Shown: one piece after another, positions 1-19,373 of the stretch | Layout of the letters: every line of letters starts with the position of its first letter | Position numbering within the stretch: the stretch's first letter is position 1 | Notes under the pieces: model-generated | What the model was told of the DNA's origin: nothing | What the model saw: only the letters and a program-made list of their open reading frames with translations | Database searches by the model: none | Program-made: the position numbers and the translations under genes | Source of the DNA: Anaerolineales bacterium | Lineage (GTDB): Bacteria; Chloroflexota; Anaerolineae; Anaerolineales; E44-bin32 | Direction of reading: 5' to 3' | Length of the DNA: 64,000 nucleotides | NCBI GenBank assembly: GCA_035455265.1 | Contig: DATIFK010000012.1 | Coordinates: 6,035 to 70,034, forward strand

Positions 1-89
1 GTCCGTCATCAGTCTGAGACCCTCTTTCCGGCAGATTTGCCTGGGATATGAGCGGAGACTGACAGCTGATGACGAAGGACGGATGACTG
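1..89. repeat. heptad-type (CAGT-core) inverted repeat pair
   Basis: gtccgtcatcagtctgag ... gagactgacagctgatgacgaaggacggatgactg; the arms are partially complementary. Confidence 0.5.
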
Positions 90-217
90 CACTTGAGAGG
101 CGGGCGTAAGGTCTTTCGGCTTCCCCTGATATAGACTTAAGGGTGACCAGTTTCGCCTGGCCGGCCGTGGCCGGAGGATGAGGCGCGGCCCGGCGATCCC
201 GGAAGGAGACACTGCCC

Positions 218-520
218 ATGGTGACGTACACCTATCCCGTTTGGCTGTTCTTTGCTGCGTTCTTCTTCTACAACGCCTACGCCCACTGGCGCGAAGGGGA
301 AGTCTCCATCCGCCCGTTTGTCATGCGCGATCGACCGGGCGGAGAGAAGGGCGCCGCTAAGCTCACGGAGGCGAACCAGGACTTCGTTCGCGAGTTCAAC
401 GCCTACCTGACCTCGGTCAACAAGGTCGGACGCGGCCGGCATCGTGCCACCGCCGTCGGTTACTCCCTATCGGGCGTCATTGCGCTCCTGTCGATGTTCC
501 TCATCCTGGTCGGCCAATAG
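218..520 (+). CDS. hypothetical small membrane protein (100 aa)
   Basis: Hydrophobic N- and C-terminal segments (VWLFFAAFFFYNAY; LSGVIALLSMFLILV). GGAAGGAG Shine-Dalgarno-like block about 9 nt upstream of the ATG. No family recognised. Confidence 0.45.
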   Translation: MVTYTYPVWLFFAAFFFYNAYAHWREGEVSIRPFVMRDRPGGEKGAAKLTEANQDFVREFNAYLTSVNKVGRGRHRATAVGYSLSGVIALLSMFLILVGQ

Positions 521-655
521 CAACAGTCATCAGTGGTCAGTCGTCAGTCATCCGTTCCTTGCCGGTGGCTGGGCCATGGGCCCAGTGATCCTCTGCGCTT
601 TCGAAGGATGACTGAACCGACAACGGATGACCGATAACCGATAACTCAGGACTCA
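521..655. repeat. heptad-type (TCAGTNN) inverted repeat pair between convergent genes
   Basis: Left arm caacagtcatcagtggtcagtcgtcagtcatccgtt. Right arm ggatgactgaaccgacaacggatgaccgataaccgataactcagg. Imperfect hairpin. Confidence 0.6.
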
Positions 656-1309
656 CCCGACCAGCCGCCGCGCCAGGTCCACCGCCCCGTTGGCATCCTC
701 GGCGTAGCCGTCAGCGCCGATCTCCTGCGCCCAGGCGGCTTTCACCGGCGCGCCGCCGACGATCACACGGACGGCCGAGCGCAGGCCGGCGCGGTCGAGC
801 GCTTCGATGACCCGACGCTGAACCACCATCGTCGTCGTCAGCAGCGCCGACAGGCCCACCAACTGGGCGCCCGTTTCCTTGACCTTGGCCACGAAGGACT
901 CGACCGGCACGTCGACGCCCAGGTCGTGCACCTCGAACCCGCTGGCCGTCAGCATGATGCCGACCAGGCTCTTCCCGATCTCATGGATGTCGCCCTTGAC
1001 GGTGCCGATCACGGCCGTCCCCGCCCGCCGGGCGGTCTCGCGGCGCCGCTTGAGCTCCGGCTCGAGCAGCCCCATGGCGCCCTTCATCGCGCGGCCGGCG
1101 AGCACCAGATGCGGGATGAAGTAGTCGCCGCAGGCGAACTTGTCGCCGACGATGCGCATCCCCGGCGTCAGGCCGTTGTCGATGATCACCAAAGGCTCCA
1201 GCCCCGCCGCCAGGGCCTGACGCGTCAGGTCGAGAGCCTCCTGTTGCTGGGCCTGCACCACCGACTCGGTCAACCGGGCGAGAAGATCTTGCGTCATGTG
1301 GCTCTCCAT
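653..1309 (-). CDS. cobalamin-binding corrinoid protein (methyltransferase cognate, MttC/MtgC-like)
   Basis: B12-binding signature GDIHEIGK (DxHxxG), plus SALLTTT and GGAP motifs and an N-terminal helical cap. Lies 69 nt downstream of an MttB-family gene on the same strand. Confidence 0.85.
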   Translation of the reverse strand: MESHMTQDLLARLTESVVQAQQQEALDLTRQALAAGLEPLVIIDNGLTPGMRIVGDKFACGDYFIPHLVLAGRAMKGAMGLLEPELKRRRETARRAGTAVIGTVKGDIHEIGKSLVGIMLTASGFEVHDLGVDVPVESFVAKVKETGAQLVGLSALLTTTMVVQRRVIEALDRAGLRSAVRVIVGGAPVKAAWAQEIGADGYAEDANGAVDLARRLVG

Positions 1310-1378
1310 TCGGCCGTCTCAAGCTCTCGGGTTGCCAGGCACCAGTCCCCAGTCTCCAGTCAGCCCACCGACCACTGC

Positions 1379-2845
1379 TCACTGGCTTTTCGGCAGATCC
1401 GGCAGCTTGTCCATGCCGAACCGCTGTGCCGCCGACGAGGCCAGACGCCTCAGTTCGGACTTCAGTTCCTCCGCCCGTGCCGGCGGACGGTACTCCGCCA
1501 ACAATAGCTCGACGCGCGCGTGGGCCCGCTCGAACGCCGACGGGGCGCCGCGCGCCTGCCAGGCGTCAAAGGCGCCGCGGTCGATGACCTCCGACGGCAG
1601 ATAGAACTCCTTCGGGAACCACCGCAAGGTGTGTTCCTGCCCCAGGTAGTCGGCCTGGTGCCGCAGCTGCCGCATCAACGTGAGAGCGATCGGATCCTCG
1701 CGTGCCTCCAGGCCGGCGATCAACCGCTTAGCCATGCCGATGATCTCGGCGTCGACCACCAGTTTCTCGAGCGACTGGCACGACTCGAAATCCAGCATGC
1801 CGGCGCCGGAGACCATGTTGACCCCCGCCAGGGCCGCCAGGATCGTACCGCCGGCCGATTCGAGGCCGGCCTGCGCGTCGACGATCTTGGAGTCGCTCAT
1901 GCCGAGGTAGGCATGGGTGGGCAGGCCGAGGGTCTTGCCGATCTGCACGTAGGCCAGGTCGATCATCCAGGTGGCGACGTCGCCCATGGGCGTGGTGCCG
2001 TGGCGCATGTCGAATACCGCCGGCGAGCCTCCCCAGACGATCGGCGATCCCGCCGCCGCCAACTGGCCGATCGTCACACCGCTCAGGCTCTCGGCGGTGT
2101 GTTGTACCACGGCGCCGGCCAGCGTCACCGGGGCCGTCGCCCCCGCCAGAGGCATCGATACCAGCTCGGCGGGTATGCCGGCGCGCGCGCAGTCGATCAG
2201 GTTCTGGCACGTCAGGTCGGACCACAGCAGCGGGGGCGACGGGCACACATCGAAGACCGCCGTCGGCCGCTGGGCCAAAGCCTGTTCGCCTCCGGCCACC
2301 GCCGCCAGCATGTCCTTCATCGTCCACCAGGTATCCTTGCGGAAGGCGCCGGTCACGATCGGCTTGCGCATGTAGAGCAAGGCCAGGTACAGGCGGTACA
2401 GGTCGCCGATCTCCTCGACCACGTCGGCGCAGACCATGGCCGTGCTCTGGGCGTCGATCGTCGGCAGCTGTTCGACCAGTTGGACGAAACGCACGAAGTC
2501 GGCCGTCTGGGGCGGCCGCTGCCTCAGCGTGTCCGGATCGAGCAGGGAGATCGCCGCCGAGCCCGGGTCGAACTGAACGCGATCGCCCCCGTAGTGCACA
2601 GCGGGGCGGCCGTCGAGGTCATACAGGTCGAAGGCATGAGGCGCCGTCGCCAGCGCCTGGCGCACGACGCGCTCCGGAATGGAGGCCACCTGCGTTGGAC
2701 GGTCGACCGTCGCGCCGGCGGAGGCCAGCAGGTCGAGGGCTTCGGCGTTGTGAATGCGGACGCCGGGGTCGACGAGCAGTTGGAAACCCTCGTCGAGGAT
2801 CCGTCGGACGAGGTCGTCGTTCAACAGATGCAGCTCCGGCCGCAT
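1379..2845 (-). CDS. MttB-superfamily (trimethylamine methyltransferase family, non-pyrrolysine) substrate:corrinoid methyltransferase
   Basis: Full-length resemblance to MttB/MtgB-type proteins (LLNDDLVRRILDEGFQLL, MPLAGATAPVTLAGA, SGAGMLD). The frame is uninterrupted with no in-frame TAG. Start placed at MRPELH (GGGAG 6 nt upstream); the ORF extends to 2908. Confidence 0.85.
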   Translation of the reverse strand: MRPELHLLNDDLVRRILDEGFQLLVDPGVRIHNAEALDLLASAGATVDRPTQVASIPERVVRQALATAPHAFDLYDLDGRPAVHYGGDRVQFDPGSAAISLLDPDTLRQRPPQTADFVRFVQLVEQLPTIDAQSTAMVCADVVEEIGDLYRLYLALLYMRKPIVTGAFRKDTWWTMKDMLAAVAGGEQALAQRPTAVFDVCPSPPLLWSDLTCQNLIDCARAGIPAELVSMPLAGATAPVTLAGAVVQHTAESLSGVTIGQLAAAGSPIVWGGSPAVFDMRHGTTPMGDVATWMIDLAYVQIGKTLGLPTHAYLGMSDSKIVDAQAGLESAGGTILAALAGVNMVSGAGMLDFESCQSLEKLVVDAEIIGMAKRLIAGLEAREDPIALTLMRQLRHQADYLGQEHTLRWFPKEFYLPSEVIDRGAFDAWQARGAPSAFERAHARVELLLAEYRPPARAEELKSELRRLASSAAQRFGMDKLPDLPKSQ

Positions 2846-3207
2846 GGGGCGCTCCCAGGATGGAGAGCCGGATTGGCTCCCGGCCATTGTCGCACGCCGC
2901 CCAGGCACGAACCTGCGCGCCTCCTCCAGGATTCGGGGGAGGTTCGTCCCTGGTCGGCGCGTCCGCCCGAGGTCTCCCGCAAGGCAAGCGCGAGGGCTCT
3001 ACCCAGGCCGCGGGAGAAGACGGCCCCGGCGGCATGGCATGAAAGTCGAAAGGCCGCCCTGCCGGGAGGATCTGCTGCTGGGCGGAAGGTCAGACCCCCG
3101 AAGGTGAGATTCGAAACTGGGCGAGCGGGCGGCGAAGTCCTATGCTCGGATGACCGTCCACCTGCGCCGCGCGCGAGTGCGCTCGGCCTGGGGGACCCAC
3201 ACCGCCG

Positions 3208-4077
3208 ATGGATCCGGTTCTCACCTCCCAAGCCCGCTCGACGACGCGTGCCGCCAGCCTGCACACCTACCTCGTCCTTCGCTGGCTGGTCGACCGAGAT
3301 CTGAGCGACGTCGCCTTCCAGGCCTACGCCTACTTCCGCTGGCTGGACGACGAGCTCGATCGCCCGGGGGCGCCGCGCGCCGCCCGGCTGGGATTCCTGC
3401 GCAGCCAGCAGCAGCTGCTCGAGCAGGCACGGGGCGGCACGCGATGTCACCCGCAGCGGGCCGAGGAAGCCTGGCTGGTCGAGCTGGTCCGCGGTGACCG
3501 CCCGGACCACCCAGGCCTGCGCTCCTATGTCGACCGCATGATGGCGGTCATGCGCTTCGACGCCGAGCGGCGCGGCCGCACGATTCGGTCGGAGGAATTG
3601 TCCTGGTACAGTCGGAGCCTGAGCCAGGCAGTGATGGATGGGCTGTCCTACTTCGTCGGCCATCGGTTCCACTACCCGCAAACGGGCGCCCGATGGCTGG
3701 CAGCTTTCGGGGCACACGTTGTCCACATGCTGCGAGACGCAGCCGAGGATGTGAGCCTCGGCTACTTCAACGTCCCGCGGGAATACCTCACAGCTCATCG
3801 ACTGGATCCGTACGACGTCTCCGGCGCTCCCTATCGCGCCTGGGTCCGCCACCGGCTGGCGCTGGCGCGTCGCTGTTTCGAGGTGGGGCGGCAGTACATC
3901 GCCGGGCTGACTCACCGGCGCGTGCGGTGGGCCGGCTATGCCTACTGTGCGCGCTTCGAGAAGACGCTGGTCCGTATCGAGAACGACCTGCGGCTGCCGG
4001 CGCCATCTCTCGCCGAAATCACCCCCGCGGCGATGCGGTCGAGTGAGGCCATGACGAGTCCTCGCTGGCCGCGCTGA
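3208..4077 (+). CDS. squalene/phytoene synthase family protein
   Basis: Two Asp-rich motifs typical of the family (YFRWLDDELD; MLRDAAEDV). Immediately upstream of a CrtI-family desaturase. Confidence 0.65.
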   Translation: MDPVLTSQARSTTRAASLHTYLVLRWLVDRDLSDVAFQAYAYFRWLDDELDRPGAPRAARLGFLRSQQQLLEQARGGTRCHPQRAEEAWLVELVRGDRPDHPGLRSYVDRMMAVMRFDAERRGRTIRSEELSWYSRSLSQAVMDGLSYFVGHRFHYPQTGARWLAAFGAHVVHMLRDAAEDVSLGYFNVPREYLTAHRLDPYDVSGAPYRAWVRHRLALARRCFEVGRQYIAGLTHRRVRWAGYAYCARFEKTLVRIENDLRLPAPSLAEITPAAMRSSEAMTSPRWPR

Positions 4078-4100
4078 CCTGCCGGCAAGCCCGCCTGACC

Positions 4101-5615
4101 GTGCCGGCTCACCCGATTCCGTCTGCGCGCTCTCCATTCCACGTCCTCGTCCTGGGGGCCGGCGTCGGCGGCCTCTCGGCCGCGGCCCACCTGGCGCGCC
4201 GCGGGGTGCGTGTCACCGTGGTTGAGAAAGACAGCGGGCCGGGTGGTCGCTGCTCCCAAATCGAACGGGACGGGCATACCTTCGATACCGGGCCGACGCT
4301 GATGGTGCTCCCGTGGCTGTACGAGCAGGAGTTCGCTACCCTCGGGGAGAGCCTCCACGATCGGCTCGACTTGCGCCGCATCGATCCGTCCTATCGCGTC
4401 GTCTTCGATGACGGCGCCTCCCTCTGGTTGACGTCGGATCCGGACCGGATGCGTTCCCAGCTCGAGGCGATCGAGCCCGGCAGCTTCGAGGGCTTCGAGA
4501 AGTACCTCGACGAAGGACGCCGCCACTATGATCTGGCGGTCACCCATCTGGTGCGCCGCTCCTTCTCGGAAGCCCGAGCGTTCTTCCGGCCGGCGCTCAT
4601 CCATTGGGTCGTGGCGCTGAAGTTGCTGGTGCGGCACTACCCGCACATGCGGCGGTTCTTCCACCATCCACGGCTGAAAGCCGCCTTCACCTTCCAGGAC
4701 CTGTACATGGGGCTGAGCCCGTTCGAAGCCGCCGCCACCTACTCCATGATGCCCTACAGCGAGCTCGTCCACGGCGTGTGGTATCCGCGCCGAGGCATGT
4801 TTGCGGTGGTGCAGGCGCTGGAAGACATTGCCCGCGGCCTGGGCGTCGAGTTCGAGTACGGAGTCGCCGCGGATCGAATCCTGACCGGAGAAGGGCGCGC
4901 CACAGGAATCCGCCTCGCCGATGGCCGCCAGCTGGCGGCCGACGCCATCGTCGCCAACGCCGATCTGCCGTACGTCTACCAGGAACTGCTGCCTCCCGAC
5001 AGCGGCGCCGCTCGCTGGCAACGCATGGATTACTCCTGCTCGGCCCTTTCCTTCCTGTGGGGCATCGACCGGGCGTACCCCGAGCTGGAACCGCACACCC
5101 TGTTCCTGGCGGACGACTACCGCGGCACGTTCGAGGCGATCTTGAAGCGCAAGAGCCTGCCGGAGACACCCAGTGTCTACGTGCACGCGCCGGCGCGGGT
5201 GGATGCCTCGATGGCGCCGCCCGGCCAAGACACCCTCATCGCCATCCTGCCGGTCGGCTGTCTGGATTCGGGCGGAGGGCAGGACTGGCCGCGGCTTCAG
5301 GCGCGCGCCCGTCGGGCCGTCTTCGACCGTCTGGCGACGATCGGGCTGACCGATCTGGAGTCCCACATCAAGTTCGAGGTCACCTCCGGCCCGATGGACT
5401 GGCGGGAGCGCCTGCATCTGGTGAAGGGTTCGACGCACGGGCTGAGCCACAAGGTCACTCAGATGGCCTATCTGCGCCCTCACAACCGCCACGCCCGCTT
5501 CCGTAACCTGTACTTCGCCGGCGCCAGCACTCATCCCGGGACCGGTATCCCGACCGTGCTCGTCTCGGGCCGGCTGGCCGCGGAAAGGCTGGCGCAAGAT
5601 TGGGCACTTCCATAG
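4101..5615 (+). CDS. phytoene desaturase family FAD-dependent oxidoreductase (CrtI/CrtN-like)
   Basis: N-terminal Rossmann motif VLVLGAGVGGLSAAAHLARRG...VVEKDSGPGGR. C-terminal CrtI-type signature YFAGASTHPGTGIPTVLVSG. GTG start. Confidence 0.85.
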   Translation: MPAHPIPSARSPFHVLVLGAGVGGLSAAAHLARRGVRVTVVEKDSGPGGRCSQIERDGHTFDTGPTLMVLPWLYEQEFATLGESLHDRLDLRRIDPSYRVVFDDGASLWLTSDPDRMRSQLEAIEPGSFEGFEKYLDEGRRHYDLAVTHLVRRSFSEARAFFRPALIHWVVALKLLVRHYPHMRRFFHHPRLKAAFTFQDLYMGLSPFEAAATYSMMPYSELVHGVWYPRRGMFAVVQALEDIARGLGVEFEYGVAADRILTGEGRATGIRLADGRQLAADAIVANADLPYVYQELLPPDSGAARWQRMDYSCSALSFLWGIDRAYPELEPHTLFLADDYRGTFEAILKRKSLPETPSVYVHAPARVDASMAPPGQDTLIAILPVGCLDSGGGQDWPRLQARARRAVFDRLATIGLTDLESHIKFEVTSGPMDWRERLHLVKGSTHGLSHKVTQMAYLRPHNRHARFRNLYFAGASTHPGTGIPTVLVSGRLAAERLAQDWALP

Positions 5616-5617
5616 GA

Positions 5618-5684
5618 GTCATCAGTTATCAGTCGTCAGTCATCAGTAAGAGCTCCGGAGTCCTTACTGACGACTGATAACTGA
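5618..5684. repeat. heptad-type inverted repeat hairpin (terminator-like) after the crtI-like gene
   Basis: The left arm tcagttatcagtcgtcagtCATCAGTtaag pairs perfectly with the right arm cttactgacgactgataactga, except for one extra 7-nt unit. Confidence 0.8.
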
Positions 5685-5714
5685 ATGGCTCTTCTGCCGG
5701 TGCGTCTCTAGCGC

Positions 5715-5729
5715 TAGAATCTTCCTATG
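5715..5729 (+). promoter_or_regulatory. TAGAAT -10 box 6 nt upstream of the deacetylase ATG (possible leaderless mRNA)
   Basis: TAGAAT at 5715-5720, ATG at 5727, and no Shine-Dalgarno sequence between them. Confidence 0.3.
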
Positions 5730-6836
5730 CGGCGCGTCGTCGTCTTCGCCTCGCCGGCCATGTGGCGCCTCGGCCACGGCCCGGATCACCCCCTCAAGCC
5801 CGAACGGCTGCAGCGGACCTACGAACTGATGCAAGCCTCGGGGCTGTTCGACGCCCGCAACGTGCGCCGCGTCGAGCCGGCCCCCGCCAGTGTGGACGAG
5901 CTCGCCTCCTTCCACACCCGCGAGTACATCGAAGCCGTCCAGGCTTTGAGCGCCGGTCGCAGCGGCGTTCGCCCCTGGCGCTTCAACTTCGGCCCCGGCG
6001 ACAACCCGGTGTTCCCCGGCATGCATGATCTGTACGCGCTGGCCGTCGGCGCTGCCCTGGCCGGAGCGACGATGTTGACGCGCGGTGAGTGCGACATTGC
6101 CTTCAGTTTCGGCGGGGGCCTGCACCACGCCTGGCGCGATCACGCCTCGGGCTTCTGCGTCTACAACGATGCCGTGGTCGCCATCACCAGACTCCTTCAG
6201 CAACGCCTGCGGGTCGCCTATGTCGATGTCGACGTGCACCATGCCGATGGCGTACAGTACGCCTTCGACGACACGGACCGAGTCCTGACCATCTCCTTCC
6301 ATCAGGATGGACGGACGCTGTTTCCCGGCACCGGTGCGATCGAAGAGAACGGCCGCGGCCCAGGGCGTGGCTTCGCCGTCAACTTGCCGCTGCCGGCCGG
6401 AACCGACGATGAAACGTATCTGTGGGCTTTCGATGAATTGGTCCCGCCGTTGGTGAGCCGCTTCGATCCCGACATCCTGGTCACGCAATTGGGGGTGGAC
6501 ACGCACTTCAGCGACCCGCTGGCCGAACTGGCGCTGACCGTGCGCGCTCACGAAGCCATCGTGCGACGGCTGGCGGCCCTCCGCCCGCGCTGGTTGGCGC
6601 TGGGCGGAGGCGGATACAACGTGGACGTGGTGCCGCGCGCGTGGACCTTGGCGCTGGCGGTGATGGCCGAGGTCCGGCTCCCGCCCGAACTGCCCGAGGT
6701 CTACCGCCGCAGCTACGGTGGCCGGACTTACCAGGACGAGGACACGCCATCCATCGACGAGACGGTCCACCAGCATGTCCGGCGGATCGTCGAGGAGCGC
6801 GTCGCCCGGTTGAAGGAACTGGAGCGCCTGGGGTAA
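5727..6836 (+). CDS. histone deacetylase-family deacetylase (AcuC/acetoin utilisation-like)
   Basis: HDAC catalytic motifs FGGGLHHA, GFCVYND and DVDVHHADG. Confidence 0.85.
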   Translation: MRRVVVFASPAMWRLGHGPDHPLKPERLQRTYELMQASGLFDARNVRRVEPAPASVDELASFHTREYIEAVQALSAGRSGVRPWRFNFGPGDNPVFPGMHDLYALAVGAALAGATMLTRGECDIAFSFGGGLHHAWRDHASGFCVYNDAVVAITRLLQQRLRVAYVDVDVHHADGVQYAFDDTDRVLTISFHQDGRTLFPGTGAIEENGRGPGRGFAVNLPLPAGTDDETYLWAFDELVPPLVSRFDPDILVTQLGVDTHFSDPLAELALTVRAHEAIVRRLAALRPRWLALGGGGYNVDVVPRAWTLALAVMAEVRLPPELPEVYRRSYGGRTYQDEDTPSIDETVHQHVRRIVEERVARLKELERLG

Positions 6837-7116
6837 CTGGAGCCTCGGATTTCGGACGGTTCGACTGCGATTTTTCCTCTGCGCTCCCGGAGGGGGTTCT
6901 CGAATCGATTGTGAAGCCGCGCTCAAAGTTGACGCGGCCTCCGTGATGACCTAGAGTCAGGCGTGGAGTCGGATCCTGGCTGCGTCGCCGGGGCGGTCAG
7001 TCCAGCTTCTTTCGACCTCATCGCACCCACTCCACCCGCCCTCGCCTTCGAGACGTCGCAACGATGGGGCACTCCCAGGGTTTATCCCATGTGGACTTCC
7101 TCTTGGTCGTTTCCCC

Positions 7117-7542
7117 GTGAGTGAGGCAATGCCGAAGCCGCTGTTGGTCGATATCTTGGCGTACGCGCCGACGGCCTTTTACCATTGCACGCACTGCGAA
7201 ATCGTCTGGCAGGAGACCGGCTTCAGCCGGCACCTGCGCTCGGAGCAGGCCAGGTCGGGTCTGCCGGAGGACCTGGCGCGCGACTACCAGGCCGTGTCCG
7301 ATTGGGTGCGGGCGATCTTCACCCGCTACGGTGAGGCGTTGGTGGTCCGCGTGATTGACGCGGCCTCCATCGAAGGGTTCCTCATGACCGCCCGCCACCG
7401 CATCCGTACGTTCCCGGCCGTGATCATCGACGGCCGGGAACGTTTTTCCGGCCCGGACTTCACTCCGGCCGAGCAGGCGCTCGCCCGCCGACTGGGTGAC
7501 GGGTCAAGGAGGTGGACCAAGCCAGAAGCCGTCAGTATGTAG
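7117..7542 (+). CDS. hypothetical protein (141 aa)
   Basis: ORF with non-repetitive composition and a CxxC pair (YHCTHCE), directly upstream of cstA. GTG start, with an alternative ATG at 7129. No family recognised. Confidence 0.4.
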   Translation: MSEAMPKPLLVDILAYAPTAFYHCTHCEIVWQETGFSRHLRSEQARSGLPEDLARDYQAVSDWVRAIFTRYGEALVVRVIDAASIEGFLMTARHRIRTFPAVIIDGRERFSGPDFTPAEQALARRLGDGSRRWTKPEAVSM

Positions 7543-7574
7543 GCAACCTGGACGACACGTATCGGAGGGAGTCG

Positions 7575-9497
7575 ATGAATACCCTGTATGTTGTCGTGAT
7601 CGCGGCCATCGCCATCTACGTCGCCTACAACTTCTACGCCAAGCGCATCGATCGGAACGTCATCCAATCGGATGCCAAACGCGCCACCCCGGCGAAGATG
7701 TACATGGACGGCGTGGATTTCATGCCCACCAATCGGAACGTGCTGTACGGCTATCACTTCAAGTCGATCGCCGCCGCCGGTCCGATCGTGGGCGTGATCA
7801 CGGCCGCCAACCTGTGGGGCTGGCTGCCCGCCATCCTGTGGCTGGTGCTGGGCGTCAGCTTCATCGGCTGGGCAAGCGACTACTCGGCCATCATGTTGTC
7901 AGTCCGCAATGAGGGCAACAGCCTGAGCGCCATCTCGCACAAGCTGATCGCCCCGCGCACCCGCACCATCCTGTTCGTGTTCATCTTCTTCTACCTGCTG
8001 CTGATCGCCGGCGCCTTCGTCGGGATCCTGGCCGCCATCCTGTCGGCGCGACCGGATGTGCCCTTCGGCATCCTCGTGCTCGCCCTGATGGGCCTGCTGG
8101 CCGGCCAGATGCTCTACCGGTGGAAGATGGATCTGATCGTCGTGACCGCCATCGTCGTCGTCGTGACCCTGGCGGCGATGATCTTCGGGCCCTTCGGCCG
8201 GCACACGGATGCCGACGGCAAGCTTGTCCAAGGCCCCGTCGGTCAGTTGATCGTGAGCGTCAACAACGTCTTCGACAACCTCACCGGCAAGAAGCCGATT
8301 GAGGCGCTGAGCACTGTCGATCCGACGCTGGCCGATCCGCGCATCCCGGCGCCCAACGCCGAGGGCGTGCGCCCAACGACGGCCACCTTCGATGCCGCCT
8401 CGGGCTCGATCAAGACCTTGCCCAACTACCTCTTCTGGGCGCTGTTCTTGTTCGTGTTCTCGTATCTGGGGGCCAACCTGCCGATCTGGAGGTTCGCTCA
8501 GCCGGTCAACTACATCGGCTTCTGGATCACCCTGCTGACCATCGGCTTCAGCGCCATCGGCGCCGTCCTGGCGCCCCTGACCGGCGCGCTGGACTCGACC
8601 GGCGCCGCCATCGGGACCTTCGCCCTGCCGGCGATCAAGGACCCGGGCCTCGGCTTCGCCCTCGTGGCCGGCAAGGCCTGGCAACCGCTGTGGCCGATGC
8701 TGTTCGTCACCATCGCCTGCGGCGCCATCTCCGGGTGGCACGCGCTCTTCGGCTCGATCGGCACGGCGCGCCAGCTGGAGTATGAAACCGACGGTCTGCC
8801 GGTGGGCGGCGGAGCGATGTTCACCGAGAACACGCTCGCTCTGCTGTCGCTGGTGGCGGTCTCGATCGCCGGTGCCGGCGGCGGCGGCGGCCGCTTCGCG
8901 GCGGGCGTCGGCAAACTCCTGAGCGCGGTCTTCGGCGTGGGCTTCGAGCCCTTCGGCACGGCGCTGGGCTTCGGCGCCTTCGTGGTCATCGTCCTGACGG
9001 TCACGCAGCTCGTCTTCCGCGTGATGCGGGTGACCCTGACCGAGTGGGTCGGCGAGACCGTGCCGGTCGCCCGGGATCCTAACGTCTCGACCATCTTCTC
9101 GATGATCCTGACGCTGGCCCTCGTGCTGACCGGGACCTGGGTCTACCTGTGGCAGATGTTCGGCGCCGCCAACCAACTGATGGCGGCGTTGAGCCTGCTG
9201 GTCGTCACGGTCTGGCTCAAGTCGCAGAAGCGCAATCCGTCGTACGCCTTGTGGCCGACGCTGTTCATGTACATCACCACCCTGGCGGCGACGGCCGTGA
9301 CGGCGCGCAACCTGTACGTGACCATTGCCACCAAGCCCGAGCTCGGCGCCCTGCCGGTCGCCGGTGCCTGGGCGATGATCATCGTGGCGGTGCTGCTGAT
9401 CGTCGCAGCCCTGCTCATCGGGTGGGATGGGTACAACGCTTACCAGCGCTACGCGCGAGGCAAGATGGCGGCGGCCGGCGCGCCGGCGGCGCGCTAG
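7575..9497 (+). CDS. cstA: carbon starvation protein A (peptide/pyruvate transporter family)
   Basis: About 640-aa polytopic membrane protein with a CstA-like N-terminus (AIYVAYNFYAKRIDRNV) and conserved blocks throughout. Start placed at the internal ATG at 7575, preceded by GGAGGGAG. Confidence 0.9.
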   Translation: MNTLYVVVIAAIAIYVAYNFYAKRIDRNVIQSDAKRATPAKMYMDGVDFMPTNRNVLYGYHFKSIAAAGPIVGVITAANLWGWLPAILWLVLGVSFIGWASDYSAIMLSVRNEGNSLSAISHKLIAPRTRTILFVFIFFYLLLIAGAFVGILAAILSARPDVPFGILVLALMGLLAGQMLYRWKMDLIVVTAIVVVVTLAAMIFGPFGRHTDADGKLVQGPVGQLIVSVNNVFDNLTGKKPIEALSTVDPTLADPRIPAPNAEGVRPTTATFDAASGSIKTLPNYLFWALFLFVFSYLGANLPIWRFAQPVNYIGFWITLLTIGFSAIGAVLAPLTGALDSTGAAIGTFALPAIKDPGLGFALVAGKAWQPLWPMLFVTIACGAISGWHALFGSIGTARQLEYETDGLPVGGGAMFTENTLALLSLVAVSIAGAGGGGGRFAAGVGKLLSAVFGVGFEPFGTALGFGAFVVIVLTVTQLVFRVMRVTLTEWVGETVPVARDPNVSTIFSMILTLALVLTGTWVYLWQMFGAANQLMAALSLLVVTVWLKSQKRNPSYALWPTLFMYITTLAATAVTARNLYVTIATKPELGALPVAGAWAMIIVAVLLIVAALLIGWDGYNAYQRYARGKMAAAGAPAAR

Positions 9498-9540
9498 GGC
9501 TTGTTGGTAGGCGAGGCTGGTTCTGCCGATCGGTGAACGC

Positions 9541-9580
9541 GAAGGCCCGCCGGGGCGGTCTCCCGTCTCGGCGGGCCTTC
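9541..9580. terminator. GC-rich hairpin between convergent genes (bidirectional terminator candidate)
   Basis: GAAGGCCCGCCG-N16-CGGCGGGCCTTC, a 12-bp perfect stem. Confidence 0.5.
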
Positions 9581-9590
9581 GACGAACGCG

Positions 9591-10244
9591 TCAGGCTGCG
9601 GCCGCCCGCTGGGCCAAGCCGCGAATGGCGTCGATGTACTCGGCTGCCCGATCGCCCTTCAAGCTCGGCAGCGGTACGTGCAATTCAAACTGGGGCGACT
9701 CGCGTCGAACGCCCAACCGCCAGACCTCCGCGAACGAAGCGCGGGCGTCGTTCAGGAGCGACAGGGCGCCCGGTCGAGAGACCGGCAGGCTCGCTTTCGG
9801 TGCCAGGAAGAGGTGATCGCCGGCGGCCTCTTCTTCCCAGCGCTGCTGGCGAGCGACGGCGATGGCCCGCTGGCCCGTCCAGCTCTGCGGCGAGGCGACT
9901 TCGTACTCGAGCCGCGGCGCCGCCTGCAGTTGTCCGCGAACGATGAGCGTGTCGCGCCGGCCGCGCCCGGCGGCGAGCAGCCACAGCCACGGGACGTCGC
10001 GCGGCGCCAGGACGAGCAAGACCTGGGCCTGGCGGAAGGGTGGCTTGGCCCGGTTGATGGTCAGTTCCACCACCGACGTGCCGAGCCAGCGCAGGGTGGT
10101 CCTTTCGCCCAGATGGGGAAGACCGCCCTGGAGCCAGCGCAGAACGGCGTTGCCGCGGCGTATGTTCCAGATCACGCCGGCAGCGAACCAGCCCATCACC
10201 AGGGCCAGGGCCAGGATCAACCAGGGCTGATAACGAGGGTCCAC
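9591..10244 (-). CDS. hypothetical N-terminally membrane-anchored protein (217 aa)
   Basis: Single N-terminal TM segment (WLILALALVMGWFAAGVIW). Divergent from the ArsA-like cassette. No family recognised. Confidence 0.5.
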   Translation of the reverse strand: MDPRYQPWLILALALVMGWFAAGVIWNIRRGNAVLRWLQGGLPHLGERTTLRWLGTSVVELTINRAKPPFRQAQVLLVLAPRDVPWLWLLAAGRGRRDTLIVRGQLQAAPRLEYEVASPQSWTGQRAIAVARQQRWEEEAAGDHLFLAPKASLPVSRPGALSLLNDARASFAEVWRLGVRRESPQFELHVPLPSLKGDRAAEYIDAIRGLAQRAAAA

Positions 10245-10324
10245 GGCGGCTCCTCCGGTGGATGGATTCTAGCGGCAGGCCGCTCGACCGTCAAAGCGCT
10301 TTGTGGGAGAATCAGCCAGCGCGC

Positions 10325-10645
10325 ATGTCTACCTCCGACCAGCCAACCACCGTGGCGAGCGCCCTTCGCCGCAACTTCGACTCGTTTCGCCACGGCCTGC
10401 GCGACTTCCTGTACGGTATGCTCGGCTACGAGTTGGCCCAGCATGCCCTGGAGATGCGCGCCACCACCGAGGCGCTGTTCCTGTTGGCCACCTTCGGCGA
10501 CATGATCGGCGTGCCCATCCTGCCGCCCTACTACAACCTGCGGCTGCTGCCGTTCGCCGTTCCGAACATCACCTCCTGGAAACGACGCCTGCTGCGCGAG
10601 CGCGAGTTCACCGACGAGCACGACTACGACCTGCACGGTCTTTGA
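10325..10645 (+). CDS. small conserved protein, paralog 1 of 3 (PILPPYYxLRLLP motif), 106 aa
   Basis: Aligns with the ORFs at 10681 and 13062: LYGM...EALFLLATFGDMIGVPILPPYYNLRLLPFAVPNITSWKRRLLRERE. Start chosen at ATG 10325 by paralog length; the ORF extends to 10262. Confidence 0.7.
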   Translation: MSTSDQPTTVASALRRNFDSFRHGLRDFLYGMLGYELAQHALEMRATTEALFLLATFGDMIGVPILPPYYNLRLLPFAVPNITSWKRRLLREREFTDEHDYDLHGL

Positions 10646-10680
10646 GCCGGCGCCATCCCCGGCCGGCGGAAGGAGCTTCC

Positions 10681-10950
10681 ATGACCACCACCACTCCCAA
10701 GAAGTCGATCTGGCAGAATCTCAGGGAGATCATGTACGGCATGGCGACCCACGACATGAGCCGCTATGCCGTTCGCACCCGCGCCAGCATGGAGCACCTG
10801 TTCATCCTGATCACGATGGGTGATCTGATCGGCGTGCCCATCCTGCCGCCTTACTACAGCCTGCGGCTCCTGCCCTACGTCGTCCCTCAAATCTCGACCT
10901 GGAAACGCCGCCTGCTGCGCGAGAAGGACATCTCGGACGCGATGTTCTGA
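10681..10950 (+). CDS. small conserved protein, paralog 2 of 3 (PILPPYYxLRLLP motif), 89 aa
   Basis: GGAAGGAG Shine-Dalgarno block upstream of the ATG. Sequence MYGM...EHLFILITMGDLIGVPILPPYYSLRLLPYVVPQISTWKRRLLREKD. Embedded in the longer track ORF 10303..10950. Confidence 0.75.
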   Translation: MTTTTPKKSIWQNLREIMYGMATHDMSRYAVRTRASMEHLFILITMGDLIGVPILPPYYSLRLLPYVVPQISTWKRRLLREKDISDAMF

Positions 10951-10951
10951 G

Positions 10952-11038
10952 CCCAGCCCCCGGCTGCCCGCTCCCAGCCGCCAGCCGAGAACGGTTGCGG
11001 TCTGGCTGGAGGCTGGCGGCTGGAAGCTGGGAGCCGGG
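10952..11038. repeat. heptad-type (GCTGGNN / CCAGCNN) inverted repeat, intercistronic in the ArsA-like cassette
   Basis: cccagcccccggctgcccgctcccagccgccagccgag ... ctggctggaggctggcggctggaagctgggagccggg. Confidence 0.7.
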
Positions 11039-11073
11039 AAGATGACGACGAGCATTCCGCGAAAGGATCATCG

Positions 11074-12075
11074 ATGAGCCTCCGCGACTCCATCCTGGAA
11101 CACCCTGAACGGCGCTATTTGATGTTCGGCGGCAAGGGCGGCCTGGGGAAGACCACCTTCTCGGCCGCCACCGCCTATTGGCTCGCCTCGCGCGGCAAGC
11201 GCGTGCTGGTCTTCTCCGTCGACCCTCAGGCCAGCCTGTCGGATATCTTCGAGAAGGACATCTTCGGTAAGGGCCCGGTCAAGATGATGGACAACTTGTG
11301 GGCGCAGGAGGTCGATGCCGACCGGCACATCCGCGCCTACCAGGAAGAGATCCGCGCCAAGATCCGCGATATGTACGGGTTCGACTCGGTCCCGGACGAG
11401 ATCGAGCAATACATCCAGGCCGCCAGCGCCGAGCCGGCCATGGAGGAGAGCGCCATCTTCGACGCCGTCGTCGACATCGTCGTGACCGGCGACTATGACT
11501 ACTACATCTATGACCTCGTCCCGTTGGGCCATGCCCTGTACTACTTGAGTATGGCCAAGGTCTACGATGAGTGGATCAACAAGATCACGAAACTGCGCGA
11601 GGAGATGCGCGAGTACGAGGAGATGGTCTCGCGCCTCAAGCGTGAGAAGGACACCGAAGAGGACCACATCCTCTCGGAGCTGCAGTACATTCGCACCCGC
11701 ATCAACGCTTCAAGCCAGATCCTGACCGACAAGGAGAAGACCGCCTTCTACTTCGTGGTGGTCCCCGAGAAGATGATCATCCTCGACACCCAGAAGGCGG
11801 CGGTGCTGTTCTCGCAATTCGACGTCCCGATCGCCGGGTACGTCGTCAACCGGGTGGTGCCCGAGGAGCTGCTGGGCAAGAACATCCCGGCCTATCTCAA
11901 GCATCGCATCGAAATGCAAAAGACCTACATGGAGGAGATACGCCAGGTTTTCGGCGACCAGGTCAGCGCGTACGTCCCCGAACTGGAACGCGACGTGACG
12001 GGCCTGCCGATGATCGAGCGGCTGGCGGAGATCATGTACGGCGACGGAAACCACAAGGCGGGGAGGCCGCGGTGA
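11074..12075 (+). CDS. ArsA/Get3 (TRC40)-family P-loop ATPase, subunit 1 (333 aa, Cys-free)
   Basis: Deviant Walker A FGGKGGLGKTT, switch I-like SVDPQASLSDIF, EESAIFD block, and a degenerate switch II YDLVPLGHALYYL (canonical is DTAPTGH). Contains no cysteine. Confidence 0.85.
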   Translation: MSLRDSILEHPERRYLMFGGKGGLGKTTFSAATAYWLASRGKRVLVFSVDPQASLSDIFEKDIFGKGPVKMMDNLWAQEVDADRHIRAYQEEIRAKIRDMYGFDSVPDEIEQYIQAASAEPAMEESAIFDAVVDIVVTGDYDYYIYDLVPLGHALYYLSMAKVYDEWINKITKLREEMREYEEMVSRLKREKDTEEDHILSELQYIRTRINASSQILTDKEKTAFYFVVVPEKMIILDTQKAAVLFSQFDVPIAGYVVNRVVPEELLGKNIPAYLKHRIEMQKTYMEEIRQVFGDQVSAYVPELERDVTGLPMIERLAEIMYGDGNHKAGRPR

Positions 12076-13052
12076 GCCACAGCGACGTATCCATGAAGCA
12101 GTACATCGCCGACCATCCCGGCTTGCGCTACATCTTCTTCGGCGGCAAAGGCGGGGTTGGAAAGACCGTCATGGCCGGCAGCACGGCCCTTTGGCTGGCG
12201 TCGCAAGGCCGCAAGGTGATTCTGGCCTCGACCAATCCGGTCCACAGCCTGAGCGGCCTGCTGGGACAGAACGTCTTCGGCCAGCCGACCCAGGTCGACG
12301 GCGCGCCCAACCTGTGGGGTTATGAGATCGACACCAAGGAGACCATCGAGCGCTCCAAGAATGAGATTCGAGAGAAGATCCAGTGGTTCTTGAAATTCGC
12401 CGACATCTCGACCAAAGCGGATGACTTCGTCGAGTCGGCGACGATGAACCCGGCCTTCGAGGAGTCGGCCATGTTCGAGAACATGGTCGACCTGATGATC
12501 GGCGACGCCTACCAGGTCTACGTCTTCGACACCGCGCCGACGGCCAACGCCCGGCGCCTGCTGGGGATGTCGCAGGTCTACTCGCTGTGGGTCAACAAGA
12601 TGCTCAAGAGCCGCGAGGAGGCCCGCTCGCTGCGGGAGCTGCTGTCGTTCACCAAGAAGAAGGAATCCGACCCCCTGCTCGACTATCTGGTGGCCTTCCG
12701 CGAGCGCATGGGGCGCGCCCGGGAGATGCTGACCGATCCCGAGCGCACGGCCTTCTTTTTCGTGACGCTGGCCGAGGCCTTGCCCATCGCCGTCATCACC
12801 CGCTTCATCGGCTGGTTCCACGAGTTCGGCATCCCGGTGGGCGGAGTCATCGTCAACATGCTGATCGACCGCAAACAGGTGAACGATGCCTCCCCGGACT
12901 TCGTCCGCAACCGCCTGGCCATGCAGGATCGCTACATGGTCGAGATCGGGCAGAAGTTCGAGGGGCTGGTGCGTGCCCAGACGCCGCTGTACGAAGACGA
13001 GGTCCGCCAGGTGGCGAGTTTGCGCCAGCTGGGCGACTCGCTGTTCGTCTAG
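12072..13052 (+). CDS. ArsA/Get3 (TRC40)-family P-loop ATPase, subunit 2 (326 aa, Cys-free)
   Basis: GTG start overlaps the upstream stop (GTGA), with GGGGAGG upstream. Walker A FGGKGGVGKTV, altered switch I STNPVHSLSGLL, EESAMFE block, and switch II FDTAPTANARRLL. Contains no cysteine. Confidence 0.85.
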   Translation: MSHSDVSMKQYIADHPGLRYIFFGGKGGVGKTVMAGSTALWLASQGRKVILASTNPVHSLSGLLGQNVFGQPTQVDGAPNLWGYEIDTKETIERSKNEIREKIQWFLKFADISTKADDFVESATMNPAFEESAMFENMVDLMIGDAYQVYVFDTAPTANARRLLGMSQVYSLWVNKMLKSREEARSLRELLSFTKKKESDPLLDYLVAFRERMGRAREMLTDPERTAFFFVTLAEALPIAVITRFIGWFHEFGIPVGGVIVNMLIDRKQVNDASPDFVRNRLAMQDRYMVEIGQKFEGLVRAQTPLYEDEVRQVASLRQLGDSLFV

Positions 13053-13061
13053 GGCGCGCGA

Positions 13062-13322
13062 ATGAACCTGGGCGACATCCGCCGAACGCTCGGCCAGATC
13101 CTGTACGGGATGGCCCTGCACGACAGCGTCCGGATGTTCGCCCGCCAGCGAAGCGGCCTCGAGCACCTCTTCGTCCTGACGAGCTTCGGGGACCTGCTGG
13201 GCCTCCCGATCCTGCCGCCCTACTACAGCCTTCGGTTGCTCCCGTTCGTCGTGCCGCTCATCGGCAACTGGCGCCGCCGCATGCTGCGCGAACGGGACCT
13301 GATGGACAGCATCTTCGGGTGA
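13062..13322 (+). CDS. small conserved protein, paralog 3 of 3 (PILPPYYxLRLLP motif), 86 aa
   Basis: Starts 9 nt after the stop of ATPase 2. Sequence LYGM...EHLFVLTSFGDLLGLPILPPYYSLRLLPFVVPLIGNWRRRMLRERD. Confidence 0.75.
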   Translation: MNLGDIRRTLGQILYGMALHDSVRMFARQRSGLEHLFVLTSFGDLLGLPILPPYYSLRLLPFVVPLIGNWRRRMLRERDLMDSIFG

Positions 13323-13436
13323 AGGAGCGGAGAGGCTCAGCACGGCCAACAGTGGAGCTGCGTCCTCTACACGGGGGTCACGAGCAACCTGGTTCGTAGA
13401 ATGGAGAACCATCGGTCGACACCCAGGAGAATCCCA

Positions 13437-14225
13437 ATGGACCTCGGACTGAAAGGCAAGATCGCCCTCGTCACCGCGGCCTCGAAGGGCCTGGGAAAGG
13501 CGGCCGCCCTGGCGCTGGCGCGGGAAGGCGCGGCGGTGGCGATTTCGGCGCGCAGCGAGTTGATCGACAGCACCGCCGAGGAGATCCGCCGCGAAACGGG
13601 CGCGCGGGTCTTGCCTCTGCGCGGCGACCTGACGCAGGCCGCCTCCGTCCTGGACATCGTCGACCGGACGCTGAAGGAGCTGGGGCCCATCGACATCTTG
13701 ATCGTCAACGCCGGCGGCCCGCCCACCGGGGGCTTCCTCGCCCTGAAGCCGGAGGACTGGGAATCGGCTTTCCAGCTGACGGTCATGAGCGCCGTGCGGT
13801 TGTGTTACGCCGTCGTCCCCCACATGATCGAGCACGGCTCGGGTAGCATCGTCGCCACCCAGTCGTACACCGTCAAGCAGCCCATGCCGAACCTGATTCT
13901 GTCGAACGCGCTGCGGATGGCCGTCATCGGCCTGATGAAGACGCTGGCCGACGAACTCGGGCCGAAAGGTATCCGCGTCAACACGATCAACCCGGCCTGG
14001 ACCTCCACCGAGCGGGTCGATCACCTGATGGCCGACCGCGCCCGCCGGGCGGGCACTACACCCGAGGCCGAGGCGGCCAAGGCCGTCGCGGAGCTCCCCT
14101 TGGGCCGCATGGGCACCGTTGAAGAATACGGGCGGACCGTCGCCTGGCTGGCCTCTCCGGCGGCGTCCTTCATCCACGGCCATGCCCTCATCTTCGATGG
14201 AGGCGCGGTCAGGTCAGCCCTCTAG
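13437..14225 (+). CDS. SDR-family oxidoreductase (FabG-like)
   Basis: Cofactor motif KIALVTAASKGLGKA and a VNAGGP block. Start placed at the internal ATG (MDLGLKGK); the ORF extends to 13401. Confidence 0.8.
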   Translation: MDLGLKGKIALVTAASKGLGKAAALALAREGAAVAISARSELIDSTAEEIRRETGARVLPLRGDLTQAASVLDIVDRTLKELGPIDILIVNAGGPPTGGFLALKPEDWESAFQLTVMSAVRLCYAVVPHMIEHGSGSIVATQSYTVKQPMPNLILSNALRMAVIGLMKTLADELGPKGIRVNTINPAWTSTERVDHLMADRARRAGTTPEAEAAKAVAELPLGRMGTVEEYGRTVAWLASPAASFIHGHALIFDGGAVRSAL

Positions 14226-14295
14226 GCGCTTCCCGAAGACAACTCGGCGGCACAGGCCCGATAGAAACCCCCCGGCAGGGCGCCGTCGACCGTTT

Positions 14296-14320
14296 ACTGA
14301 CAACTGAAGGCTGAAGACTG
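14296..14320. repeat. short heptad-type repeat (single arm)
   Basis: ctgacaactgaaggctgaagactg. Confidence 0.4.
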
Positions 14321-14339
14321 TTCGCGGAGGTCTTGACCG

Positions 14340-15266: not shown

Positions 15267-15293
15267 CCCCACGCGCCCGGCGCTGTCGGCGCA

Positions 15294-15340
15294 AGACTGA
15301 GACTGGCTGGAAGCTGGCGGCTGGGAGCCGGCAGCTGACA
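15294..15340. repeat. heptad-type repeat (GCTGGNN units), single arm
   Basis: agactgagactggctggaagctggcggctgggagccggcagctgaca. The core is nearly identical to 11002-11038. Confidence 0.6.
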
Positions 15341-15347
15341 CAAGCCT

Positions 15348-15992: not shown

Positions 15993-16005
15993 GGCGCCTC
16001 AGCGA

Positions 16006-16066
16006 GTGGCCAGTGGTCAGTGGTCAGTGGAGTCTGATCTTCCTGGCCACTGACCACTCACCACTG
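16006..16066. repeat. heptad-type inverted repeat hairpin (CAGTGGT units)
   Basis: gtggccagtggtcagtggtcagtgg ... ccactgaccactcaccactg; about 20 bp of complementarity with one mismatch. Confidence 0.8.
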
Positions 16067-16083
16067 TTCACTTCCCATGAGCC

Positions 16084-17682: not shown

Positions 17683-17706
17683 GAGATCAGCTGTCAGCCT
17701 TCCGTC

Positions 17707-17804
17707 TCAGTTTCCAGTTGCCAGTTGCCAGTTGCCAGTTTCCAGTGCCAATCTCTAGTCTCTAGTCCCCCATCCCCAACCCCCAATCCCCAATCCCCAA
17801 TCCC
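17707..17804. repeat. 14-unit phase-perfect heptanucleotide tandem array
   Basis: TCAGTTT CCAGTTG x3 CCAGTTT CCAGTGC CAATCTC TAGTCTC TAGTCCC CCATCCC CAACCCC CAATCCC x3; the 7-nt phase is unbroken over 98 bp. Confidence 0.9.
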
Positions 17805-17829
17805 GTGCCCCAGGCTTCCCGGGCACTCG

Positions 17830-19360: not shown

Positions 19361-19373
19361 GGAGAAAAGTTGG

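Follow-up and report, generated by a model that had tools for sequence, protein, structure and literature searches.

The spacer at positions 5618-5684 of the 64-kb stretch of Anaerolineales DNA analyzed herein (the window, with a guanine-plus-cytosine (GC) content of 65-68%, to which all counts refer unless stated otherwise) contains a hairpin composed of seven-nucleotide units, and similar heptad arrays recur between many genes of the same stretch. The question raised by this locus is what these arrays are, and whether they serve the genes between which they lie. In the present study, the repeats, their potential to form hairpins, their placement against gene ends, the conservation of this position and the turnover of the units were observed directly. 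Herein, we propose that the arrays are REP/BIME-like extragenic hairpins made from short tandemly repeated repetitive (STRR)-like heptads, which likely act as RNA stem-loops at gene 3' ends or between cistrons and which change through the gain and loss of whole units; we give this reading a probability of about one half.

The focal hairpin begins 2 nt past the TAG stop codon of a crtI-like gene, with an HDAC/AcuC-like gene on the other side. The left arm (5618-5650, five units) is separated by a loop (5651-5662) from the right arm (5663-5684). Within these arms, 19 nt (5622-5640 and 5666-5684) are 100% complementary, followed by a 7-nt bulge, CATCAGT (5641-5647), and then by AAG:CTT pairing, for 22 bp in total; the minimum free energy is -42.7 kcal/mol (z = -7.0). 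An earlier reading made from the sequence alone (the sequence-only reading) had described this same structure as a 22-bp complementarity with one extra heptad, CATCAGT, in the left arm, and had taken the asymmetry as a sign of unit gain or loss. The structure was borne out by this fold, and unit gain or loss was supported when the crtI-HDAC spacer was compared in four relatives (L161-L164; HDAC identity of 95, 85, 83 and 81%). A heptad hairpin directly follows the stop codon in all four, the loop GACTCCGGAGTC is kept in the three closest, and the units differ between relatives. Balanced arms of 5+5 units are present in L161-L163, and L164 has about five units per arm with an inner hairpin inserted. 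The right arm in the window is 6 nt shorter than those of the relatives, with one heptad missing and one extra A. Thus, the balanced arms of the relatives indicate that the extra heptad of the window reflects a real length change, which is best read, from these alignments, as a loss in the window lineage.

The rate of change of this spacer was also informative. The identity to the window was 0.83, 0.73 and 0.83 for the spacer, compared with 0.86, 0.60 and 0.58 for the third codon positions of the neighbouring gene. Judged from these values, the spacer changes quickly between close relatives and is under constraint at greater divergence. In the compared locus L001, the crtI-HDAC spacer carries a hairpin of another family (CAAACCCGTTTTGC...), which is also found at 33370-33438 and 55743-55783 of the window. 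This replacement at the focal site suggests that the presence of a hairpin matters more than its sequence. The replacing palindrome family (CCCAAACCCGTTTTGsC / GsCAAAACGGGTTTGGG; L001 copy at 7479-7520) is conserved in sequence, has perfect arms of 19-20 nt and lies just past stop codons. Beyond the focal hairpin, the stretch GCGCTAGAATC (5706-5729) is conserved in all five genomes (the window and L161-L164), and in this region a TAGAAT motif lies 7-8 nt upstream of the HDAC/AcuC start codon. This motif looks like a -10 box directly past the hairpin, for an mRNA with no leader or a very short one, and with such a box the crtI-like and HDAC/AcuC genes would be separate transcription units.

The heptad repeats are real and non-random. 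Tandem Repeats Finder (TRF) reported period-7 arrays at 15 of the 18 loci listed in the sequence-only reading, and the described sequence was present at all 18. The three loci without a TRF call are short or degenerate: 14296-14320 and 43294-43356 contain 3-4 in-phase cores each, and 1-89 contains just two consecutive in-phase CTG trinucleotides (59 and 66), plus one at 87. When runs of at least three in-phase copies of a 4-mer were counted at periods of 5-10, period 7 gave 10 runs for CAGT, 8 each for ACTG and CTGA, and 5 each for CCAG, CTGG, GCTG and TCAG, whereas identical cores at periods 5, 6, 8, 9 and 10 gave zero or one run (zero for CAGT, ACTG and CTGA). A core-independent detector found 18 arrays at period 7 versus 1, 2, 0, 2 and 1 at periods 5, 6, 8, 9 and 10, its signal at period 12 being coding periodicity; 100 dinucleotide-preserving shuffles yielded 0.11 +/- 0.34 arrays, with a maximum of 2. 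The period-7 signal, for which the sequence-only reading had asked for comparison with a shuffled background, is therefore far above that expectation. A gene map was drawn from codon-position GC and Pfam hits, and none of the arrays falls within an open reading frame (ORF) supported by either, as the same reading had claimed; the 64 kb contain 19-21 heptad loci. An array at 1335-1361 and a GGGGTGA/CCCTCAC hairpin family (30708-30764 and 44673-44751) had been missed. The statement that most loci consist of an array and its reverse complement holds for thirteen inverted pairs and fails for six lone arrays (1335-1361, 14296, 15294, 17707-17804, 42020 and 60621). At gathering thresholds, no Rfam family matched the arrays of the window, and a tRNA scan of the window found none.

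The unit sequence was defined by phasing 137 units from about 20 loci on the CTG trinucleotide, which gave NRRCTGR as the consensus (YCAGYYN on the opposite strand), with N, R (83%), A/G (97%), C, T (90%), G (93%) and R (92%) in order. Five of the seven positions are constrained. Four sub-types co-exist, namely NNACTGA, NNACTGG, CCACTGA and NGGCTGG/NGGCTGA, and common units are AAACTGG, TGACTGA, CAACTGA and CGACTGA. TAACTGA accounts for 4 of the 137 units and GGACTGG, the complement of CCCCAGT, for 2; CCCCAAT/GGGGATT units occur at 17766-17804, and TTGGTCA arrays were not seen in the window. The arrays are 3-6 units long and heterogeneous, with a unit mix particular to each locus.

With respect to genes, the arrays occupy 19 of the 44 spacers of at least 30 nt, including 5 of the 7 convergent spacers, 11 of the 29 tandem ones and 2 of the 7 divergent ones. 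At 14 of 16 stop-adjacent ends, the arm begins no more than 7 nt from the stop codon, and the distal arm ends 5-42 nt ahead of the next start codon in tandem spacers, or 5-55 nt from the next start or stop codon overall. Thus, the arrays constitute essentially the entire spacer. Strong structure (z <= -2.5) was found in 18 of the 45 gene 3' flanks that have a spacer, and 13 of those 18 flanks are of the heptad type. Beside start codons, the lone arrays are CTG-type in the sense direction in 5 of 6 cases.

Most of the arrays stand as opposed pairs from which either strand can fold an imperfect stem-loop of 20-40 bp, and 11 of the 13 inverted pairs fold at z scores of -2.4 to -7.0 relative to dinucleotide shuffles. 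The longest inverted repeats in the window are mostly heptad pairs. The order of the arms is fixed: the CAG-type (XAG-N4) arm is 5' and the CTG-type arm is 3' in 16 of 16 arms from the window and the compared loci L001, L081 and L084, and the same is observed in L161-L164, with the pyrimidine-rich arm first in the pairs of the window. Because a palindrome is identical on both strands, this polarity cannot come from the direction of transcription or replication.

The positions of these hairpins are also conserved at other junctions. Downstream of pdxS, a heptad hairpin made of different units lies at the orthologous position in L001 (1668-1740), and the pdxS-downstream and AAA-tmk hairpins are positionally conserved in L001 and L081. 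The junction between the AAA/R3H gene and tmk was compared in 142 loci. The AAA/R3H protein (16084-17682) also places the host: its best relatives come from metagenome-assembled genomes (MAGs) of Anaerolineales/Chloroflexota, with 85% identity among GTDB genomes and 90% on a metagenome contig. Most of the 142 loci have a spacer of 0-20 nt, and such short or overlapping junctions suggest that the two genes are probably co-transcribed. About 15 of some 39 unique spacers of at least 40 nt consist of period-7 inverted arrays, built from unrelated units: CAGTGGT, GACGAAG, GAAGGAT, AAATCCC, CAATACG, CAGCGGT, TTAGCAA, AACTTCA and GAATCGT. Single genomes use different units in adjacent spacers (L112 and L125), sometimes three in three. 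The use of unrelated units at one junction indicates that period 7 and inverted symmetry are class-wide and that the CAGT core is lineage-specific. Accordingly, the earlier statement that the unit varies while the period and the core are kept applies within this lineage, and it does not extend to other Anaerolineae, which build their hairpins from unrelated heptads.

The proposal of a role in RNA rests on four observations: the placement at stop codons, the predominance of heptad hairpins among structured 3' flanks, the conservation of both position and sequence over long distances, and the fact that an unrelated hairpin takes over the focal site in L001. In the proposed mechanism, pairs of arrays transcribed at a gene 3' end or between cistrons would form stable stem-loops. 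These stem-loops might end transcripts without a U-tract or, more probably, would block 3' exonucleases and thereby determine how stable the segments of an mRNA are relative to one another. The arrays change by whole-unit gain and loss, together with drift from unit to unit, presumably generated through slippage and template switching from arm to arm; position, period, core and inverted symmetry persist.

Canonical intrinsic (Rho-independent) termination was rejected, as the stems are present and the T-tail is absent: no T runs were seen after the 3' arms of the arrays, and a scan of positions 1-20000 for hairpins with a T-tail found 5 sites versus 8 +/- 3.3 expected, none coinciding with an array. 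Since canonical terminators are not above chance, another 3'-end signal is plausible. Two pairs, A15 (43294-43356) and A17 (46511-46668), lie between divergent start codons with no nearby 3' end, and the AAA-tmk hairpin stands where the genes overlap in most relatives and where a strong terminator would be harmful. Together with the absence of T-tails, these sites argue that termination is not the whole story, and a bidirectional terminator, one of the roles suggested in the sequence-only reading, cannot alone account for all arrays.

These same sites also count against a role as 3'-end or intercistronic stem-loops, and several further results weigh on that side. Six arrays are unpaired. Two pairs fold poorly as whole spacers, with z = -1.0 for A11 (35131-35268), the outer arms of which do pair, and z = +0.1 for A15. 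When the order of units in one arm was permuted, five of eight window hairpins folded equally well or better (A04, 10952-11039; A07, 16005-16072; A10, 31024-31093; A12, 37584-37680; and A16, 45086-45178), and stability clearly fell only in the focal hairpin (A03), in A09 (19374-19446), and in the hairpins of L161 and L163. This result suggests that pairing comes mainly from the constant core and not from fine-tuned arms; the arms evolve semi-independently. The comparison of sense with antisense RNA stability (5 of 7 in the window and 10 versus 4 in the AAA-tmk spacer) was not significant (Wilcoxon p = 0.68), and G-U pairing thus names no single transcribed strand. In the RNAalifold consensus of four orthologous focal hairpins, most of the 40 pairs are invariant, compensatory double changes appear in 2 of them, and the covariation term lies slightly above zero (+1.1). 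Covariation is thus weak, and neither it nor the permutation result proves selection for pairing. Taken together, the folding and covariation data do not decide between a role at the RNA level and one at the DNA level, and the function in RNA is inferred.

The rival that survives best is that the arrays are a non-adaptive by-product, in which slippage, to which 7 nt would be the most prone unit length, expands heptads in tolerant spacers, template switching at quasi-palindromes makes or homogenizes the pairs, and no function is selected. We consider this explanation rather unlikely; it must nonetheless be taken seriously, and it may well account for the origin of the arrays. The composition and number of the units turn over quickly, and relative to the 95%-identical relative, the spacer (0.83) has diverged about as far as synonymous positions (0.86), with a unit-sized length difference. 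The permutation and covariation results are likewise as expected of arms that are not fine-tuned, and unrelated units occur at the same junction across lineages and in adjacent spacers. According to the portion of PMC4679880 that cites Mrazek et al. (2007), heptanucleotides are the commonest class of long simple sequence repeats in prokaryotes, with polymerase slippage as the proposed cause. However, at greater divergence the spacer, loop included, is much better conserved (0.73-0.83) than synonymous positions (0.58-0.60), a hairpin is kept at the same site despite family replacement, and neutral expansion does not predict either the fixed polarity or the tight abutment to stop codons.

A second rival, which appears quite improbable, treats the arrays as recognition sites for a ring-shaped or multimeric RNA- or DNA-binding protein that reads the core at 7-nt spacing; in one version, an anti-terminator or chaperone bound to the XAG-N4 repeats of the first-transcribed arm would gate hairpin formation. 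The constraint on five of seven unit positions would fit such a reader, as would the 5' location of the CAG-type arm on both strands. The lone arrays next to start codons are oriented like TAACTGA in Beggiatoaceae (PMC4679880), and HutP offers a precedent of XAG motifs at a 7-nt period on a terminator RNA (PMC2425495). However, the HutP sites are direct and not inverted repeats, and a Pfam scan of about 30 small and flanking proteins of the window revealed no RNA-binding ring protein, cold-shock protein or transposase, and hence no candidate reader. Moreover, a sequence-specific reader cannot account for the period of 7 seen across the class, given that the units of other Anaerolineae are unrelated. 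More speculatively, and with even less confidence, a general process in Anaerolineae might build and maintain heptad-periodic palindromes at gene boundaries from arbitrary 7-mers, which would point to a dedicated machine with a 7-nt step. If so, one candidate would be an RNA-binding ring protein that recognizes the first arm and controls hairpin formation genome-wide by a HutP-like logic, and another would be a specific replication or repair activity; the STRR and TAACTGA heptamers of other filamentous bacteria might then have a similar explanation.

Least likely is the spread of whole hairpins as mobile copy-paste elements (REPIN/MITE-like, where MITE denotes a miniature inverted-repeat transposable element) by a transposase such as RAYT with later divergence by slippage: common descent would produce the fixed polarity, some spacers are almost wholly element where relatives have no spacer, two further dispersed and sequence-conserved hairpin families occur in the window, and other elements are nested in heptad loops, but no two heptad loci share loop or flanking sequence, terminal tags and target-site duplications were not seen, the mix of units varies from locus to locus, hairpins persist at orthologous sites across long divergence, and no transposase gene was among the roughly 30 scanned proteins. 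A MITE was rejected on this anatomy. Two other candidates were also rejected. A promoter, suggested by the likeness of CTGACA to a -35 box, was not supported, as a consensus scan of 1-20000 flagged no array and no -10 box lies at the proper distance. A CRISPR array would consist of 24-48-nt repeats with unique spacers, whereas these units are 7 nt long and contiguous.

The stem-loops proposed here are distributed along the window as follows. In convergent spacers, A02 (521-655) fills the interval with arms at 521-556 and 607-655, the right arm being degenerate with a CGGT core and the loop containing a small GC hairpin, and A10, made of TTCCCAGT units, fills another, 1 and 5 nt from the two stop codons (z -6.5); the lone GGCTGG-type array at 15294-15340 likewise occupies a convergent spacer, where it is 7 nt away from the stop codon of tmk. 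The hairpin A01 (1-89) is truncated by the window start and retains a CAG-type arm at 4-14 and a CTG-type arm at 56-89 (z -3.2). The arms of A04, of a CCAGCC/GGCTGG subfamily, are at 10952-10988 and 11003-11039 (z -4.6). Between the AAA/R3H stop codon and the tmk start codon lies A07, made of CAGTGGT units (z -4.5), and A09 begins 3 nt after the pdxS stop codon (z -5.0). The hairpin A12 is located between an amidase stop codon (37683) and the next start codon (37578), with z = -5.1 for the hairpin and -7.7 for the 3' flank, and A13 (39211-39293) abuts the stop codon of a TfoX_N gene (39294) at 0 nt and lies 13 nt from the amidase start codon (z -3.5). The longest inverted repeat in the window is A16, with GTTCCCA/GGAAACT units, 6 nt from a stop codon at 45185 (z -4.0). 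In A11, outer arms of the CAGTGGT type (35131-35152 and 35237-35262) enclose a one-direction CAGTTCC/CCCTAAT array (35160-35225). As for the divergent spacers, A15 is flanked by the starts of dnaN (43240; gene at 42056-43240, minus strand) and a histidine kinase gene (43413; 43413-44672, plus strand), and A17 is split into arms at 46511-46536 and 46639-46668 (z -3.4), which stand about 100 nt apart with intervening DNA that carries hairpins of its own.

Among the lone arrays, that at 1335-1361 consists of CAG-type CCAGTCC units within the spacer 1310-1378, and that at 42020-42052 is CAG-type in the sense direction, 3 nt after the dnaN stop codon. The CTG-type array at 14296-14320 (plus strand) has a start codon (14340) 19 nt downstream, and the GGCTGA-type array at 60621-60647 (plus strand) is at or overlaps the annotated start of the gene at 60637. 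The one-direction array at 17707-17804 (minus strand) joins (CAGTTGC)n at 17707-17746 to (CCCCAAT)n at 17766-17804. Read on the minus (sense) strand, this array is rich in G and of the CTG type, and it lies upstream of the start codon at 17682. On the minus strand of 17767-17820, which is the sense strand upstream of the AAA/R3H start codon, the run GGGATTGGGGATTGGGGATTGGGGGTTGGGGATGGGGG fits a G-quadruplex pattern, and its GGGGATT unit forms G-quadruplexes in vitro in the case of Nostoc (PMC4692102).

Several other elements were noticed in the window. A third hairpin family (30708-30764, 44673-44751 and 46535-46575), in which a C-tract arm precedes a G-tract arm, is conserved, with arms GCCCTCACCCC...CCCCTCTCCC / GGGAGAGGGG...GGGGTGAGGG; it is weakly heptad-periodic (CCCTCAC/GGGGTGA) and fits a G-quadruplex pattern. 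The copy at 44673-44751 (CCCTCACCCC ... GGGGTGAGGG) is immediately 3' of the histidine kinase stop codon, and that at 46535-46575 is nested inside the A17 loop. Nested elements, either small GC-rich palindromes or one-direction arrays, are found within the heptad loops at 521-655, 35131-35268 and 46511-46668, at 4955-5087 of L001 and in the AAA-tmk spacers of L082-L084. These nested elements resemble the small dispersed repeats that are reported to lie within heptamer arrays in Nostoc. Between pdxS and a divergent GntR/MocR-like regulator gene, a period-8 ATTGTMTN array (20556-20603; ATACAATC/AGACAATG on the plus strand) is conserved in sequence across Anaerolineae at more than 25 related loci (for example, L004 6802-6832 and L015 3533-3566). 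It was considered as a member of the heptad family and rejected as a separate, sequence-conserved, operator-like site upstream of pdxS, and a PdxR-type regulator probably uses it as its operator. The sole Rfam match of the window, PYLIS_3 (1801-1900, minus strand; 42.3 bits versus a gathering score of 38), falls within an ORF of the MttB family (1379-2908) that has no in-frame stop codon, and the match probably reflects similarity of the coding sequence in an MttB homologue of the non-pyrrolysine kind. The last 17 kb (46700-64000) contain 1 heptad locus, compared with about 20 in the first 46.7 kb, despite 11 spacers of at least 30 nt, and GC is slightly lower at 48-56 kb; this part could be of different origin or have a different organization of transcription.

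Filamentous cyanobacteria have been known since 1990 to carry tandem heptanucleotide repeats, which were later described in Beggiatoaceae, Bacteroidetes and Xanthomonas as well. The Anaerolineae of the Chloroflexota add a further distant group, in which the repeats are unusually dense and occupy nearly half of the spacers. They are organized here into hairpins of one fixed polarity flush against stop codons, and many related genomes are available for comparison. The separation of general features (the 7-nt period, the inverted symmetry and the location at the ends of genes) from a lineage-specific one (the CAGT core) narrows the possible mechanisms. If the hairpins mark transcript 3' ends, they would be the main 3'-end signal in a genome where canonical terminators show no excess, and the annotation of Chloroflexota MAGs and the prediction of operons could make use of them.

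The STRR heptamers of heterocystous cyanobacteria reportedly comprise CCCCAGT, TTGGTCA and CAACAGT, as Mazel et al. are said to have described in 1990. The present arrays resemble them in having tandem 7-nt units, mostly intergenic, at many loci and with a CAGT core. They differ in that the host belongs to the Chloroflexota rather than to the heterocystous cyanobacteria, the GC content is 67%, the arrays are short and heterogeneous, and most form head-to-head pairs that fold into hairpins against stop codons; the CAGT core is shared and GGACTGG occurs twice, but the common units differ from STRR1-3. The description of an STRR-like family in a GC-rich genome can be kept as far as sequence is concerned, since NRRCTGR covers GGACTGG and TAACTGA and CCCCAAT/GGGGATT units are present, but a GC-rich host is not a first, given Xanthomonas (PMC4692102). 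Calothrix heptanucleotides are mentioned in the same report, as are the GGGGA(T/C)T repeats of Nostoc, of which only a few are paired and to which the CCCCAAT/GGGGATT units at 17766-17804 correspond (PMC4692102). A preprint on Nostoc linked heptamer repeats to the regulation of recF and recO, the binding partner being unidentified there (10.1101/2022.06.06.494920). None of the papers found by full-text searches describes repeats of this kind from Chloroflexi or Anaerolineae.

The TAACTGA direct repeats of marine Beggiatoaceae, some Cyanobacteria and Bacteroidetes (MacGregor 2015, PMC4679880), hosts among which Chloroflexi were not reported, share with the present arrays intergenic sets of 2-6 copies, a unit that fits NRRCTGR and the CTGA-type sense orientation just upstream of start codons, which holds here for start-proximal arms and for 5 of 6 lone arrays. 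However, 169 of 170 TAACTGA sets in the Maribeggiatoa genome are direct and one is inverted, with related heptamers rarely repeated (PMC4679880), whereas inverted pairs predominate here, many unit variants co-exist and loci also abut stop codons. On the hut terminator RNA of Bacillus subtilis, HutP reads XAG motifs at a 7-nt period, with cleavages at U498, U505 and U512 (PMC2425495). Its sites, three per protein surface, lie on the 5' side of a terminator hairpin and are bound 5' to 3'; they resemble the 5' arms of our hairpins in having XAG motifs 7 nt apart. They differ in forming a single regulatory site of two direct XAG clusters for a Bacillus protein, of which no homologue was seen here, none having been sought, and the analogy is a mechanistic one only. 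The REP, BIME and REPIN elements are imperfect palindromes that abound in spacers, at the 3' ends of genes and inside operons, often as inverted doublets, with proposed roles in mRNA stabilization, termination and supercoiling (PMC3116915, PMC3733652). Unlike the present loci, which have the unit consensus alone in common and differ in loop, length and flanks at every locus, REPs have a family-wide conserved sequence, GTAG/CGTC tags and RAYT, and they are not heptad-periodic. Finally, the GGGAATC heptamers of Xanthomonas form 70-75 convergent array pairs with potential stem-loops or cruciforms (Rehm et al. 2015, PMC4692102), repeats #03 and #04 being convergent with one array on the plus strand and one on the minus strand (PMC4692102). 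The GGGAATC unit is unrelated to that described here and forms G-quadruplexes, whereas the GC-rich genome, the intergenic heptamers and the convergent pairs in one fixed orientation are common to both systems.

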